Origin: a bacterium
GTDB taxonomy: Bacteria; Patescibacteriota; Minisyncoccia; UBA6257; JAGOQP01
Assembly: GCA_021801825.1 (NCBI GenBank)
Contig: JAJYXK010000007.1
Coordinates: forward strand, 24,509-88,508
DNA length: 64,000 nucleotides
Direction of reading: 5' to 3'
Under the pieces are notes generated by a model that saw nothing but the letters and a program-made list of their open reading frames with translations, had not been told where the DNA came from and did not search any database. The position numbers and the translations under genes are program-made. Shown in pieces: positions 2,789 through 39,338 of this stretch (within the stretch, counting starts at the first letter, position 1; every line of letters begins with the position of its first letter).

Positions 2789-6168
<3,380 letters not shown>

Positions 6169-27102: not shown

Positions 27103-27333
27103 TTATAAATGCAAGAATCCTAAAAGTTGATATATAAGAAGCGCGGGCCATATAATCGCCTTTAAAACTCCGAGAACCCCCATCCAAAAAGTGTCTGCTT
27201 GTTGGATAAAATAAACCGCAGCTCCCACGAACGCCATGCCGTATACAGCGCACGGAGTAGAACCAGCGCGACATTTTTTACATTTGTGATGTGAACACAT
27301 ATCGTGTTCTTGTTTTTGTGTTTCGTTTTCCAT
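27103..27333 (-). CDS. Small membrane protein with N-terminal CSHHKCKKC Cys/His cluster
   Basis: 76 aa; 2 TM; terminator downstream on minus strand. Confidence 0.45.
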   Translation of the reverse strand: MENETQKQEHDMCSHHKCKKCRAGSTPCAVYGMAFVGAAVYFIQQADTFWMGVLGVLKAIIWPALLIYQLLGFLHL

Positions 27334-27338
27334 ATTTT

Positions 27339-28352
27339 TTAATTATTAATTATAGTGATTGCTAAGGGATTGCTTTGGGTAGAGGTCGCGGAGAGATCAT
27401 ATATATTTGAAACGCGCATGGTGTGATACCCCGCGGATATAGTTTGAGGAACCGTAAATACAAAAATGGTTCCATCGGGAGAAACATATGATGCTTTGGT
27501 GCTTCCATTAAATGAATCATCAAAATAGACAAATGAATTGTTGGTAAATCCAGATCCATATAGTACTGCGCCTGTTTTTGCGTCCGCAGTTAAAGTATTT
27601 TTTGGAAGAATAGATTGTATCACTAAGGGTTTTTGAGCGATGGTAAATACCTTACTCGTTTGATCAAGGGGTGATGGTCCGCCGACCTGATTCTGTACCC
27701 GAATACGATAATTTCCAGAAGCAATAGACGATGTATCTCCCGAAAGCATAGCTCCTACCCGCCACGTATATTGTTTTTCAGGGAATCCTCCGAGTGATAT
27801 GTATCCTTTTCCAACACCATTCTCATCTTCAAGTAGTATAGAATACGCAATGATATTTGAGGGAGCGGTCCAGGCAATAGAAATATAATCTCCCACTACA
27901 ACCGAGGTTCCTTGCGTGGGGGTGGTTACTACAATTGCGGAGGGATTTGTTGCGGAGGTAGTGGTTGTAACAGAGGGAGTAGAGGGGGAAGCTGGTAGCG
28001 TAGGAGTAATGGCAGGACAACTATTTTTTTGTATAGCGGCTCTGGTGAGTGGTCCGGTTACTCCCGTTGTTTGAATACCATATGCGGATTGAAATTTTTT
28101 AACCGCGGAGAGTGTTGCGGGACCAAAAACCCCGTTTGGTTGAGCGGTAAGATATCCGGTTGCAAAAAGATAGTTTTGTAATGAACGTATTTGTCCTCCC
28201 ATAGTGAGGTCGGTTGATCCCTGATATAAATTAGTGGTAATGAGCGTACAAGAAAGTGTCGCGGCGTACGTGGAAGAGCAACTTTCAAATAATATGATTG
28301 TTATACAGATGTTAATAAAAAGCGCCGAATATTTTCTCAAGTTGATTTTCAT
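27339..28352 (-). CDS. Secreted protein with peptidoglycan-binding domain and Ig-like beta-rich region
   Basis: Signal peptide MKINLRKYSALFINICITIILF; GGQIRSLQNYLFATGYLTAQPNGVFGPATLSAVKKFQSAYGIQTTGVTGPLT (PG_binding_1-like). Confidence 0.55.
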   Translation of the reverse strand: MKINLRKYSALFINICITIILFESCSSTYAATLSCTLITTNLYQGSTDLTMGGQIRSLQNYLFATGYLTAQPNGVFGPATLSAVKKFQSAYGIQTTGVTGPLTRAAIQKNSCPAITPTLPASPSTPSVTTTTSATNPSAIVVTTPTQGTSVVVGDYISIAWTAPSNIIAYSILLEDENGVGKGYISLGGFPEKQYTWRVGAMLSGDTSSIASGNYRIRVQNQVGGPSPLDQTSKVFTIAQKPLVIQSILPKNTLTADAKTGAVLYGSGFTNNSFVYFDDSFNGSTKASYVSPDGTIFVFTVPQTISAGYHTMRVSNIYDLSATSTQSNPLAITIINN

Positions 28353-28432
28353 ATAGATATATCTTATCGCCTTTCTATTTTTCAAACAACCCAACTCAAG
28401 ATTTTTCATAATTTCTTGCGATTGAAATATGT

Positions 28433-28471
28433 TAAAAAACAAAAAAATCCCGCCGAGGAAAAGGGGCGGGA
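28433..28471 (-). terminator. Rho-independent terminator downstream of tRNA-Trp (minus strand: tcccgcc-N10-ggcggga + T7GT6)
   Basis: Plus strand aaaaaacaaaaaaatcccgccgaggaaaaggggcggga. Confidence 0.5.
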
Positions 28472-35727: not shown

Positions 35728-35842
35728 AGTAATTATGATATATCAAAACGTGAGGAATTAAAATCATCGGTTGATTTTTGAGCTTAAAAAAAGTATGCTG
35801 TTTTATGTTATAAGTTATATATTGTTAGTTTTCTGTTGTTTT

Positions 35843-35888
35843 GGAGAGGTGTCAGAGTCCTGCCTGCCGGTAGGCAGGGGTCTATTGT
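35843..35888 (+). repeat. Direct repeat copy 1: tRNA-Ser positions 1-16 + 20-nt hairpin insertion (cctgcctgccggtaggcagg) + tRNA positions 17-26/30
   Basis: ggagaggtgtcagagtcctgcctgccggtaggcaggggtctattgt(gcag). Confidence 0.85.
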
Positions 35889-35906
35889 GCAGAGTTACTT
35901 ATAATT

Positions 35907-36152
35907 ATGTACTTTGTGTATATCTTAAAAAGTGAAAAAGATGGTGGAATATATGTTGGTAAAACAAACGACATTCATCGAAGACTCTTAGAGCACAACG
36001 CTGGACACACACAGTCGTTAAAAAACAGGACACCCCTAACACTTTTAGAATGCATAGAGTGTGGAACAGAAGAAGATGCTCGTCATCTTGAAAAAGAATA
36101 CAAGAAAGGATATAAGCGTGAGGAGATAAAAAGAAAGTACAATTTACAATAA
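35907..36152 (+). CDS. GIY-YIG nuclease family protein (81 aa, UPF0213/YazA-like)
   Basis: MYFVYILKSEKDGGIYVGKTNDIHRRLLEHN GIY-YIG motif; flanked by 46-nt direct repeats. Confidence 0.7.
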   Translation: MYFVYILKSEKDGGIYVGKTNDIHRRLLEHNAGHTQSLKNRTPLTLLECIECGTEEDARHLEKEYKKGYKREEIKRKYNLQ

Positions 36153-36157
36153 AATAT

Positions 36158-36203
36158 GGAGAGGTGTCAGAGTCCTGCCTGCCGGTAGGCAGGGGTCTAT
36201 TGT
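36158..36203 (+). repeat. Direct repeat copy 2 (identical 46 nt), ends in TATAAT 42 nt upstream of tRNA-Ser
   Basis: ggagaggtgtcagagtcctgcctgccggtaggcaggggtctattgt + ataat. Confidence 0.85.
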
Positions 36204-36245: not shown

Positions 36246-36332
36246 GGAGAGGTGTCAGAGTGGTCTATTGTGCAGCTTTGCTAAAGCTGTGGGGCTTAAC
36301 CGCCCCCGGGAGTTCGAATCTCCCCCTCTCCG
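36246..36332 (+). tRNA. tRNA-Ser (anticodon GCU), long variable arm, G73
   Basis: GGAGAGG acceptor, anticodon arm CAGCT-TTGCTAA-AGCTG, variable arm GGGGC-TTAACC-GCCCC, T-arm GGGAG-TTCGAAT-CTCCC. Confidence 0.85.
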
Positions 36333-36440
36333 CAGTAAGAACTTTTTATCGGATGACCTGAATGCCCGCATATTTCCTTACTTTTTGAAAATCAAAATTT
36401 ATTAAAAAGCAGGCAGGAGGAAGGGATTCGAAATATAATT

Positions 36441-36917
36441 ATGAAAAACCCAGAAAAAAGCTTTCAATGGATAGTGAATATTTTACAAAAACATAACGTT
36501 CCTTTTGTGGTGACGGGGGGACTTGCCGCAAAAAGTTATGGATCTCCACGACCGCTTAACGATATTGATATAGATATTCATGATAATGACTTTGCAAAAA
36601 TAATAGATGACATAAGACCATATCTTACCTTTGGTCCTGCGGTGCTTGTTGATGAGCGATGGGACACTATGCTTGCAACGTTAAATTATGAGGGGCAAGA
36701 TATAGATTTGAGTGGGGGAGATACACTTAAAATATGCGATGCGCGAACAGGAGAATGGAAACTCAACAAGACCGACTTCTCAAATGTTGAACATAAAGAT
36801 ATTTTTGGAATCACGGTCCCCGTTGCTATCCGTGAAGATCTTATAGCGTATAAATCAATGTTAGAAGGAGACCATCAATTAGTTGATATTCAAGCGATGA
36901 AAGATTCTATAAAATAA
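36441..36917 (+). CDS. Minimal nucleotidyltransferase of the pol-beta superfamily, Lnu(A)/ANT-like (158 aa)
   Basis: VTGGLAAKSYGSPRPLNDIDIDIH fits hG[GS]-x9-13-DhD NTase motif; size and C-terminal region resemble lincosamide nucleotidyltransferases (from memory). Confidence 0.5.
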   Translation: MKNPEKSFQWIVNILQKHNVPFVVTGGLAAKSYGSPRPLNDIDIDIHDNDFAKIIDDIRPYLTFGPAVLVDERWDTMLATLNYEGQDIDLSGGDTLKICDARTGEWKLNKTDFSNVEHKDIFGITVPVAIREDLIAYKSMLEGDHQLVDIQAMKDSIK

Positions 36918-36956
36918 TTTTTTATAGTGATGAGTTTATATTTTTAAGTATTCAGA

Positions 36957-37799
36957 ATGATTTTACATATGATTTCTTGTGACGTACGAGAGGTTGAATT
37001 TAAAGGAGAAAAAATTGATGTGGGAATATATAAAAATAAGAATAAGAACAAAAAAGATGTTCTGTTTCTCCATGGACTGGGATCAAATACTTTAGATTCT
37101 TATAGTAAGACTTTAGACAAACTTCCCCAAGAGAGAATATGCGCGATTGATTGGTTGGGGCATGGAGCAACAACAAAATTACTTCGCGATAAAGATTCTT
37201 ATGGGGCAGAGTATATGGCGGACTATCTAAAAACGGTTATAGATTTCTTGATAGATAATGATATTTTAGATACGCACTTTTTCATTGTGGCTATGTCTAT
37301 GTCGGCAATTCCTATTGCCTATCTGTACCCACAGTATGAGAAAAATATTAAAAAAATAGTTTTCTTGCACCCTGCGGGAATGGATAAAAAGATGGGATAT
37401 GTATTCGCGTTTTTTAGTAAGTACATCACACAAAATATTTTTTTCTCGTGGTTCTTTTCTTATTGGATACTGAATAAAAAAGCAAGAAGAGTTCTTCAAA
37501 AGAACTTAAAAGTGAAAAATTGGGGTGTTATTGTTTCAAAATATGCCAGTGAAGGATATGATCTTTTTGGTCATATGAAAGAGACTCATTATATTCCGGA
37601 AAAATTTAATAAAATAAAGAAACCCGTTTTGCTCGTATGCGGAGAGAGGGACATGATCTTTACACGGAGGAAATATTTACATTTTGCAGTTGAGCATAAT
37701 TGGAAAGTACACATTCTAGGAAAAGAGGAGCATGCGTTGGGGAGAGGTAACTCAGATAGTGTTGCTGAGGAGATAAAAAATTTCTTTGAGTTAGTATAA
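36957..37799 (+). CDS. Alpha/beta-hydrolase fold protein
   Basis: VLFLHGLGSN oxyanion region, AMSMS nucleophile elbow-like, C-terminal His region. Confidence 0.5.
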   Translation: MILHMISCDVREVEFKGEKIDVGIYKNKNKNKKDVLFLHGLGSNTLDSYSKTLDKLPQERICAIDWLGHGATTKLLRDKDSYGAEYMADYLKTVIDFLIDNDILDTHFFIVAMSMSAIPIAYLYPQYEKNIKKIVFLHPAGMDKKMGYVFAFFSKYITQNIFFSWFFSYWILNKKARRVLQKNLKVKNWGVIVSKYASEGYDLFGHMKETHYIPEKFNKIKKPVLLVCGERDMIFTRRKYLHFAVEHNWKVHILGKEEHALGRGNSDSVAEEIKNFFELV

Positions 37800-37871
37800 A
37801 GCGCTTTGTGCGTGTATGGGCATTTTGTAGTAAAACTTGCTCTTTTCGCGTTTTCTGATATTATATAATCC

Positions 37872-39338
37872 ATGTCAAAAACTACCGCACAAAATCAGGC
37901 TTCTGAGCAAATAACCCGTCCTCCCGTTGTGGTGGTTATGGGCCATGTTGATCATGGCAAAACAACTCTTTTGGATTACATCCGCAAAACTCGCGTAGCA
38001 GAACGTGAAGCGGGTGGTATCACACAAGCAACTGGAGCGTATGAAATTGTATGGAAAGATAAAAAAATAACGTTTATTGATACTCCTGGACACCAAGCGT
38101 TTACCTGTATGCGTCAGCGAGGAGCAGATATTGCTGATTTGGCGGTGTTGGTAGTTGCGGCGGATGATGGCGTAAAACCGCAAACCAAAGAAGCGATTGA
38201 TATTTTGAAAAAATGTGGCACGCCGTTTGTGGTGGCAATTAATAAAATTGATAAGAACAATGCCGACCCAGAACGAACCCGACAATCACTCATGGGAAAC
38301 AGCGTGCTTCTTGAAAAATATGGAGGAGATATTGCGTGGGTAGAAATCTCGGCAAAATTAGGAACCGGAGTTGATGAATTATTGGATCATTTGTTGTTGA
38401 TGTGGGAAATGGAGCCGGGTACGTGTAATCTTTCTGCTCCGGGAAAGGGGTTTGTATTAGAATCGCATCGTAATGGACAACAAGGAATCGTAGTGTCAGT
38501 AATTATAAAAGATGGAACGGTTCGTACTGGAGAACAGATTTGTACGAAAAGTGCGTATGGAAAAATTCGCGCGTTGGAAACATTCTCAGGTGCGCGAACA
38601 CAGCTTCTGCAACCTTCAAGCCCTGCGCGCATTATTGGTTTTGAATCATTGCCAGAAACCGGAGAAGAATTTTTTATTGGCGCAGAATTGGATGCGTTTG
38701 TAAATGCTGCGCCTATGGAGCAGGAAAAGAAAAATACACAAGTGATTTCTCCCGAAGAAGATGCGGTGAAAATTATTTTGAAGGCAGATGTGTCGGGATC
38801 TTTAGAGGCGCTCTCTCAGGTGTTGTTAGCATTGTCACTGAAGAATCTTAAATTGCACATTGTTTCTCAAGAAGTGGGAGAGGTGAGTGATGGAGATGTT
38901 AAATTGGCAAGCACTACGGGGGCGACTATTATTGCGTTCAACGTGAAGGTGACTAAACCAGCAGAAAATTTGGCTATGGGGCAACACGTGAAGATTGTGT
39001 CATCTGATATTATCTACCGACTCATTGAAAGATTAGAAGAAATGGACGAACACGCGAACGAGAAACCGGTGGCGGGAATTCTGGAAATTCTAGCGGTATT
39101 TAGCAATAAAAATAAGAAATGGCTCATCGGAGGAAAAGTGGTTGAGGGGAGATTATTATTACAAGATAAATTTACGGTATCTCGCGCTGACGCGCCGTTA
39201 GGACGGGGGCGTATTACGAATTTGCAACGCAATAAAATGGATGCAAAACGCGTTGAAGAGGGGGAGTGTGGTTTGATGGTAGAAACACCCGTTGAATTAA
39301 AGGTGGGAGACCATCTCATTGTGGAATTTGAAGACTAG
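37872..39338 (+). CDS. infB: Translation initiation factor IF-2 (short form, 488 aa, G domain + C-terminal domains only)
   Basis: [29 protein letters not shown]; followed by rbfA as in canonical operon. Confidence 0.85.
   Translation: MSKTTAQNQASEQITRPPVVVVMGHVDHGKTTLLDYIRKTRVAEREAGGITQATGAYEIVWKDKKITFIDTPGHQAFTCMRQRGADIADLAVLVVAADDGVKPQTKEAIDILKKCGTPFVVAINKIDKNNADPERTRQSLMGNSVLLEKYGGDIAWVEISAKLGTGVDELLDHLLLMWEMEPGTCNLSAPGKGFVLESHRNGQQGIVVSVIIKDGTVRTGEQICTKSAYGKIRALETFSGARTQLLQPSSPARIIGFESLPETGEEFFIGAELDAFVNAAPMEQEKKNTQVISPEEDAVKIILKADVSGSLEALSQVLLALSLKNLKLHIVSQEVGEVSDGDVKLASTTGATIIAFNVKVTKPAENLAMGQHVKIVSSDIIYRLIERLEEMDEHANEKPVAGILEILAVFSNKNKKWLIGGKVVEGRLLLQDKFTVSRADAPLGRGRITNLQRNKMDAKRVEEGECGLMVETPVELKVGDHLIVEFED

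Follow-up and report, generated by a model that had tools for sequence, protein, structure and literature searches.

The locus

The gene analyzed in this study encodes a stand-alone minimal nucleotidyltransferase (NTase) of 158 amino acids. It was recognized as an open reading frame (ORF) with its translation at positions 36441–36917 (+ strand) of a 64-kb stretch of DNA from a patescibacterium. This whole stretch of 64,000 nt is called the window, and coordinates are those of the window unless another sequence is named. A second ORF of 280 amino acids (36957–37799, + strand) follows after a gap of 39 nt on the same strand and was assigned with Pfam to the alpha/beta-fold serine hydrolases; the two genes are probably co-transcribed. 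A gene for tRNA-Ser(gct) lies 107 nt upstream of the NTase gene on the same strand. The gene order, all on the + strand, is GIY-YIG, tRNA-Ser(gct), NTase, hydrolase, infB, and rbfA. Both ORFs, the tRNA-Ser gene, and the GIY-YIG gene were found where an earlier note on this DNA had put them, and the NTase carries the motif quoted there, TGGLAAKSYGSPRPLNDIDID.

Conservation and predicted fold of the NTase

A database search returned 223 homologues of the NTase, nearly all of them 150–170 amino acids long. Those with names are all called "hypothetical protein" except for one generic "nucleotidyltransferase," and some are already labelled PF10706, which is the Pfam family Aminoglyc_resit ("Aminoglycoside-2''-adenylyltransferase"). 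Conservation was examined by aligning 39 of the homologues, with identities as low as 45%. The alignment contained 17 invariant columns, including G26, G27, R37, D41, D43, D89, Y137, K138, and D149, together with W10, Y33, W74, Q86, and W106, and so shows strong purifying conservation. The first six of these residues are invariant in all 39 homologues, and the NTase motif is not a chance match. Its spacing is R-x3-D-x-D, with a third Asp about 46 residues past the second Asp of the motif. The same six residues are the likely catalytic residues, with a probable contribution from K138. Only two basic residues are invariant in the family, which is acidic, with a median pI of 5.1 and a net charge of −7 (sequence-level charge).

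The window protein matched PF10706 with a score of 17.1 bits (E = 0.0064) over residues 11–57 only, which is below the curated gathering cut-off of 21 bits for that family. Because 36 of the 39 family members do reach PF10706 at E ≤ 0.1 (best E = 9.4e-6), the clade appears to straddle the PF10706 threshold. At E ≤ 0.1 the NTase matched no family at all in NCBIfam, a collection that includes antimicrobial-resistance models for Lnu and ANT(2''). Since the protein lies below the PF10706 cut-off and has no NCBIfam match, it represents an uncharacterized clade of a known enzyme kind and not an orthologue of Lnu or ANT.

The structure model of the NTase has a predicted local distance difference test (pLDDT) score of 97, and its secondary-structure elements occur in the order expected for a pol-beta core. 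The hG[GS] motif, the D-x-D motif, the third carboxylate, and the alpha-beta-alpha-beta-beta core, which characterize the pol-beta-type nucleotidyltransferase superfamily, are all present. Past the core the model contains short strands at residues 97–99, 106–108, 116–121, and 124–129 and then helices, a pattern that can be read as the two beta-hairpins plus helices of the ANT(2'') C-terminal domain. When the PDB was searched with the NTase sequence alone, nothing significant was found (E ~1 at best). In the PDB, the family profile matched TM1012 with E = 3e-5 and, over the full length, Lnu(A) with E = 0.004; the hhalign probabilities were 93% and 52%, respectively, and Foldseek aligned the model to TM1012 with a TM-score of 0.78. 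TM1012 and Lnu(A) were confirmed as PF10706 members, since fragments of both score strongly; the NTase thus has full-length structural and profile similarity to solved members of this family. Taken together, these comparisons identify a divergent sister clade of the PF10706 enzymes, closest to TM1012, with its two-metal catalytic set (D41, D43, and D89) intact.

Comparison with characterized enzymes

TM1012 of Thermotoga maritima (PDB 2EWR, 2FCL, and 4HX0; "putative nucleotidyltransferase") resembles the NTase in its size, its single domain, and its G-G/S ... D-x-D core. The two proteins are 17–22% identical and differ in the third carboxylate, which is Glu in TM1012 and Asp89 in the NTase. 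A fragment of TM1012 scores 106 bits in PF10706, far above the window protein. TM1012 has no known function, and hence provides no hint of the substrate of the NTase.

Lnu(A), a lincosamide O-nucleotidyltransferase (PDB 4FO1 and 4WH5), is about 160 amino acids long, like the NTase, and the profile alignment runs from end to end (4–153 against 7–157). The DIDID core and a conserved C-terminal Asp are common to both; for the latter, D149 of the NTase pairs with the D in "HFDIKNL." In the structural alignment the two proteins are 17% identical. The lnu(A) gene is a resistance gene on small staphylococcal plasmids (PMC4598088), whereas the NTase family is chromosomal in uncultured Patescibacteria and DPANN archaea.

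In ANT(2'')-Ia (AadB, aminoglycoside 2''-O-adenylyltransferase), Arg40 binds the nucleoside triphosphate (NTP), Asp44 and Asp46 bind Mg, and Asp86 is the catalytic base (PMC4313920). Residues R37, D41, D43, and D89 of the NTase are spaced as these four residues are, and the modeled strands and helices past the core would fit the two beta-hairpins plus helices of ANT(2''). The two proteins are only 12–14% identical, His42 of ANT(2'')-Ia is replaced by Leu39, and there are two C-terminal helices in the NTase compared with three to four in ANT(2'')-Ia. We conjecture that the invariant W74 and Y137 may be at positions comparable to Tyr74 and Tyr134 of ANT(2''). The antibiotic-contacting residues of ANT(2'')-Ia are reported to differ strongly even from their counterparts in Lnu(A) (PMC4313920). 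Because these contacts already differ between the two resistance enzymes, and because identity to the NTase is 13–17%, the acceptor pocket of the NTase cannot be transferred from either one.

In fold searches with the NTase, the score of MenT1 (Rv0078A), a tRNA nucleotidyltransferase toxin, equals that of Lnu(A). The cavity of MenT1 is electropositive, and its C-terminal lobe consists of four helices (PMC10435456). The NTase differs in being acidic, as judged from its sequence-level charge, and in lacking the four-helix C-terminal lobe, an antitoxin-like neighbor, and a match to DUF1814/AbiEii.

The description of this protein in the earlier note as a minimal pol-beta NTase resembling Lnu and ANT enzymes was therefore borne out by the profile matches to TM1012 and Lnu(A) and by the contact of most family members with PF10706. 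Membership in the Lnu/ANT resistance families was not, given the sub-threshold Pfam score, the lack of an NCBIfam match, and an identity of 13–17% in structural alignments.

Distribution of the clade

The size of the clade was determined by an exhaustive hidden Markov model search of 1.84 billion cluster representatives (clusters at 50% identity), which gave 228 clusters at E ≤ 1e-30, 584 at E ≤ 1e-10, and 1196 at E ≤ 1e-3. In a collection of 185,579 species, with one genome per species, 139 NTase loci were confirmed, a count limited by the search patterns. The bacterial loci were found in many classes of Patescibacteria and in Peregrinibacteria, Gammaproteobacteria (including Coxiellaceae), Dependentiae, and Bdellovibrionota; the archaeal loci were found in the DPANN groups Aenigmatarchaeota, Micrarchaeota, Woesearchaeota, and Nanoarchaeota. 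The distribution is thus patchy and spans the boundary between bacteria and archaea. Because one DPANN archaeal copy is 57% identical to the window NTase, horizontal transfer across domains is implied. Such a gene had been thought unexpected in a minimal, symbiont-like genome; that expectation was wrong, since the family lives mostly in Patescibacteria and DPANN archaea with reduced genomes.

A viral origin was considered and rejected. No relative of the NTase was found in viral contigs when IMG/VR was scanned with the family patterns, and fold matches in BFVD were weak (best E = 4e-5, TM ~0.5–0.6) and mostly to LicD-like or uncharacterized proteins.

Genomic context of NTase homologues

For the survey of genomic context, 80 dereplicated NTase loci were used. 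Three genes on each side were clustered by BLAST, and the 146 immediate neighbors were scanned with Pfam. An identical NTase protein with the same neighbors was present on contigs of GCA_027422995.1, which we take to be the same genome. Relatives at 65–75% identity occupy unrelated genomic places: one overlaps a GrpB gene downstream of another tRNA-Ser, one is beside an isochorismatase gene, one lies between pth and dnaE, and one is near HicAB. No neighbor cluster occurred in more than five of the 80 loci, and none of the 188 Pfam families found in the 146 flanking genes occurred in more than four genes. These two analyses found no conserved operon partner, and the NTase has no obligate partner gene.

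The commonest flanking families were isochorismatase, SAM methyltransferases, MarR, MFS, Ble-like, GNAT, cytidine deaminase, and GIY-YIG; histidine-phosphatase and phosphoribosyltransferase families also occurred. One recurrent neighbor is a cytidine-deaminase-family protein (dCMP_cyt_deam_1) of about 130 amino acids, which may be blasticidin-S-deaminase-like. Rare fusions join the NTase domain to GNAT, an MFS half, NUDIX, GFA, or cupin. This repertoire of neighbors and fusions lends soft support to small-molecule or detoxification chemistry. The most informative context for the function of the family is a tight operon in locus L011 (4875–8931; also in L012 and L013), which encodes an FAD-dependent monooxygenase (374 amino acids), an NTase homologue (74% identity), an isochorismatase-family hydrolase, an MFS transporter, and a 225-amino-acid protein of no known kind. 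A fragment of an EamA transporter gene and a serine recombinase gene are nearby. In another locus (L002, 277–2463), about 2.5 kb upstream of the NTase homologue, are genes for an HTH protein, an HNH nuclease, an unknown protein of 176 amino acids, and a SMODS-domain nucleotidyltransferase; this cluster resembles a small defence-type module.

Placement next to tRNA genes was more frequent than expected. A tRNA gene was present within 500 nt upstream on the same strand in 9 of the 80 loci, compared with about 1.5–3 expected from the local tRNA density, and the tRNAs flanking NTase loci are of many different types. A GIY-YIG gene lies directly upstream of the NTase gene on the same strand in three of the 80 loci; in one locus (L073, 4481–4915) the order is tRNA-Gly, GIY-YIG, NTase.

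The adjacent hydrolase

The hydrolase matched Pfam Abhydrolase_1 (E = 1.6e-13; 51.3 bits, compared with a cut-off of 25.8) and also Hydrolase_4 and Abhydrolase_6. An HG oxyanion motif (H39-G40) and the triad Ser114/Asp232/His259 are invariant in five homologues, which were the only ones found, and S114 is in a nucleophile elbow of the form Sm-x-Ser-x-Sm (A-M-S-M-S). The protein therefore has the Pfam match, HG motif, elbow, acid, and His of an alpha/beta-fold serine hydrolase. Searches for more specific relatives found no PDB sequence at E ≤ 0.001 and only sub-threshold matches in NCBIfam.

One hydrolase homologue (65% identity) is located 2.9 kb from infB in another relative, among genes for a methyltransferase, a DUF1761 protein, and an inositol monophosphatase, and another adjoins a DDE transposase gene. 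None of the contexts of the hydrolase homologues contained an NTase gene, and no such hydrolase was present among the neighbors in the 80 NTase loci. The NTase–hydrolase pair was thus seen in this genome alone, and the two genes are not conserved partners.

The interval upstream of infB

The infB gene (37872–39338, + strand; NCBIfam TIGR00487, 445 bits) is separated from the hydrolase gene by a spacer (37800–37871, no strand assigned). It heads a conserved block, infB-rbfA-tRNA-Cys-tRNA-Leu-pspC-tRNA-Glu-DUF975, that is common to relatives. In the two closest relatives, L094 and L095 (86% and 76% IF-2 identity), rsgA is directly upstream of infB, and the NTase, hydrolase, GIY-YIG, and tRNA-Ser genes were not found within 4–7 kb. 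No rsgA gene was found anywhere in the 64-kb window. A blastn comparison located the synteny breakpoint in the spacer: DNA similarity to L094 begins at position 37831, 41 nt before the infB ATG, and is colinear to about 44458. In more distant relatives (56–57% IF-2 identity), tRNA-Ser(gct) is 1.6–2.9 kb upstream of infB, with other genes between. Because both genes are missing at this position in the closest relatives and other genes occupy it in the distant ones, we conclude that the NTase and hydrolase genes are accessory genes and that this lineage has a gene-turnover slot directly before infB.

Like a tRNA-linked island, the gene pair adjoins a tRNA gene and is absent from this position in close relatives. 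No recombinase ORF or integrase gene was found between 35.7 and 37.9 kb, however, and no att-type repeat of the tRNA 3' end was found downstream of tRNA-Ser. The composition is native: GC content gave z-scores of −0.66 for the NTase gene and −2.1 for the hydrolase gene, and synonymous codon use was typical (z = +1.8 and +1.4, respectively). A classical genomic island was rejected on these three grounds. The proposal that the NTase and the hydrolase form an accessory islet was consequently upheld in part. The absence of both genes from the equivalent position in L094 and L095 and the unrelated contexts of the NTase elsewhere agree with accessory genes. The restriction of the pair to this genome, the lack of any anomaly in GC content or codon use, and the lack of an integrase or att repeat do not agree with an islet.

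The long rsgA–infB intergenic region of L095 (3841–4079) is 71% identical over about 245 nt to window positions 27109–27355 on the opposite (−) strand. This part of the window covers an intergenic region plus the 5' end of an ORF (27339–28442), and no Rfam family was found there. A conserved non-coding element is one possible explanation, and a promoter or leader that has been relocated is another.

The infB product is a short IF-2 of 488 amino acids. Because it aligns to positions 77–575 of the 587-position TIGR00487 model, it starts close to the GTPase domain, without long N-terminal domains. The short form was present in every relative recovered.

The GIY-YIG element and other features of the window

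The tRNA-Ser(gct) gene (36246–36333, + strand) was identified with ARAGORN. It was missed in the Rfam scan of the whole window and scored 48 bits with the Rfam tRNA model once the region was searched alone. Upstream of it is a GIY-YIG ORF (35907–36152, + strand; PF01541, E = 1.8e-14) flanked by perfect 47-nt direct repeats at 35842–35888 and 36157–36203, so that the element including both repeats spans 35842–36203 (+ strand). Each repeat consists of the first ~17 nt of tRNA-Ser(gct), a 20-nt palindrome, CCTGCCTGCCGGTAGGCAGG, and the next ~10–14 nt of the tRNA; the intact tRNA gene follows the repeats at 36246. In a relative with 57% IF-2 identity (L098, 4118–4856), a GIY-YIG gene is likewise directly upstream of tRNA-Ser(gct), with five copies of a 5' fragment of the tRNA and a near-identical palindrome. 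The arrangement suggests a mobile GIY-YIG element, with the 5' part of tRNA-Ser as the target that it duplicates. The element is a neighbor of the NTase and not a part of its function.

In six other relatives (L099, L103, L104, L105, L122, and L132), tblastn matches to GIY-YIG were located just downstream of rbfA. A tRNA-Cys gene is just downstream of rbfA in the window and in those relatives in which tRNA genes were mapped. Small GIY-YIG ORFs are thus found repeatedly beside tRNA genes in this group of relatives.

A third copy of the palindrome CCTGCCTGCCGGTAGGCAGG is present at 2216–2235, where 0 chance matches were expected. Other short hairpins are beside it, and the 23S rRNA gene follows about 560 nt downstream; the palindrome may represent a small element of dispersed occurrence. 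Shortly before the NTase start, at 36408–36432, the sequence GCAGGCAGG resembles the right arm of the palindrome. In the same region, GAGGAAGGGATTCGAA, which contains the T-loop-like GGGATTCGAA, forms an inverted repeat (I4) with the T-arm and 3' end of tRNA-Ser, at 81% complementarity. These features may be a degraded remnant of a tRNA or of the element, or may be due to chance.

The 23S rRNA match (2797–6164) is 3368 nt long, and all 2925 positions of the model were matched. Because about 440 nt are in excess of the model length, one or more insertions or introns in this gene are suggested. No 16S rRNA gene adjoining the 23S gene was found within the window.

Function of the NTase

The best explanation of these results, to which we assign a probability slightly better than even (about 0.55), is that the NTase is an apparently active, catalytically competent, stand-alone enzyme of the TM1012/Lnu(A)/ANT(2'')-Ia branch that carries out Mg-dependent O-nucleotidylylation of a small molecule. 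The enzyme would bind Mg-NTP and transfer the nucleoside monophosphate to a hydroxyl group on a small molecule, probably one that bears a ring or is cationic. This reaction may serve detoxification or resistance, as a modification of the antibiotic type carried out by Lnu(A) and ANT(2''), with another substrate. The hydrolase would be an independently acquired accessory serine hydrolase and not a functional partner, and the two genes would fill a slot of fast gene turnover that lies, in this lineage of Patescibacteria, between tRNA-Ser(gct) and infB.

Several points weigh against small-molecule O-nucleotidylylation. The closest structural relative, TM1012, is without known function. Because MenT1 scores as high as Lnu(A), the fold alone cannot separate small-molecule substrates from RNA substrates. 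The proposed equivalences to ANT(2'') residues were drawn from the spacing of the motif and from profile alignments with relatives. The evidence from neighbors and fusions is thin, as no Pfam family occurred in more than four of the 146 flanking genes and the families are broad; some of the fusions, moreover, may be gene-calling errors. Finally, a common endogenous metabolite would explain the high conservation across domains no less well than an antibiotic that targets the bacterial ribosome.

The last point leads to the alternative that survives best, in which the substrate is endogenous, either a salvage metabolite or cofactor intermediate or, for protein AMPylation, a protein, and the NTase is a lineage-specific metabolic or regulatory enzyme. 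The 17 columns that are invariant across bacteria and archaea and the enrichment in host-dependent, salvage-reliant lineages are what such an enzyme would show. Some copies are among housekeeping genes (pth and dnaE), one is fused to NUDIX, and the neighbors include isochorismatase, histidine-phosphatase, cytidine deaminase, and phosphoribosyltransferase genes; the isochorismatase family includes nicotinamidases. The clade is nevertheless rare and patchy (139 loci in 185,579 species, with the limit on the count noted above), is missing at the same locus in the closest relatives, and has no conserved pathway neighbor. We regard an endogenous substrate as possible, at well below even odds.

It is unlikely that the NTase confers true resistance to lincosamides or aminoglycosides by acting on the substrates of Lnu(A) or ANT(2'')-Ia. 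It has its superfamily, size, and architecture in common with these enzymes, its predicted acidic surface resembles that of aminoglycoside-binding enzymes, and antibiotic-resistance-like genes have been reported to be abundant in genomes of the Candidate Phyla Radiation (CPR) (PMC8651080). The lack of an NCBIfam match, the sub-threshold PF10706 score, and the identity of 13–17% in structural alignments speak against this, however, and the differences between the drug contacts of ANT(2'')-Ia and Lnu(A) make the substrate non-transferable. The family is also present in DPANN archaea at 50–57% identity, and archaeal ribosomes are poor lincosamide targets.

The earlier note had also raised the possibility of a toxin-type NTase. 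A toxin of the MenT/AbiEii kind would add nucleotides to tRNA acceptor ends and so block translation, and both the fold similarity to MenT1 and the excess of loci with a tRNA gene just upstream could be taken in its favor. The flanking tRNAs are of so many types, however, that they fit an insertion hot spot better than a linkage to the substrate. Neither of the context analyses found a conserved adjacent antitoxin candidate, and PF08843 (AbiEii/DUF1814) was not among the 10 Pfam families matched by the 39 members at E ≤ 0.1. PADLOC returned nothing for the NTase, the hydrolase, or the 383-amino-acid upstream protein. With two invariant basic residues in a family that is acidic by sequence-level charge, the NTase also seems to contrast with the electropositive, four-helix-lobed MenT1. 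We therefore disfavor a toxin and consider it a little less probable still than a resistance enzyme. A phosphotransferase of the LicD/fukutin type, which would use a CDP-alcohol as the donor of phosphocholine or ribitol-phosphate for a surface glycan, is very unlikely: although TM1012 was the closest template in the modeling of fukutin and FKRP (PMC2794190), no LicD family appeared in the Pfam lists at E ≤ 0.1, TM1012, Lnu(A), and ANT(2'') were all clearly more similar to the NTase than FKRP was, the neighbors were not enriched for cell-envelope genes, and the NTase has no signal peptide or membrane anchor.

Significance

A bolder proposal, which we consider doubtful, is that the clade is a previously unrecognized, horizontally circulating modification enzyme shared specifically by ultra-small episymbionts (Patescibacteria and DPANN) and other host-dependent bacteria (Coxiellaceae-like Gammaproteobacteria, Dependentiae, and Bdellovibrionota) that nucleotidylylates a substrate class outside those of the known ANT and Lnu enzymes. 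The candidate substrates would be a host- or community-derived toxin active on both bacteria and archaea or, in view of the tendency of the NTase gene to follow closely after tRNA genes, an RNA 3' end. An in-silico study with a cut-off of 20% identity has claimed divergent resistance-like genes for the CPR (PMC8651080). Because of that cut-off, and because "lnu" does not occur in the main text of that paper, the NTase clade was probably missed by the survey.

The consequence is modest under either a small-molecule modification or an endogenous substrate, since one small accessory enzyme is involved and no new kind of system. The finding is mildly informative in its distribution and tRNA-adjacent placement and would not surprise a specialist. 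If the proposed activity is correct, the NTase would represent an unannotated branch of the antibiotic-nucleotidyltransferase superfamily, lying below the Pfam and NCBIfam thresholds, in uncultured ultra-small bacteria and archaea. It would then provide a concrete candidate for the so far purely in-silico claim of divergent resistance-like genes in the CPR and a first functional handle on TM1012-like proteins. If the substrate is instead endogenous, the NTase would point to a salvage or regulatory step that is specific to host-dependent microbes.

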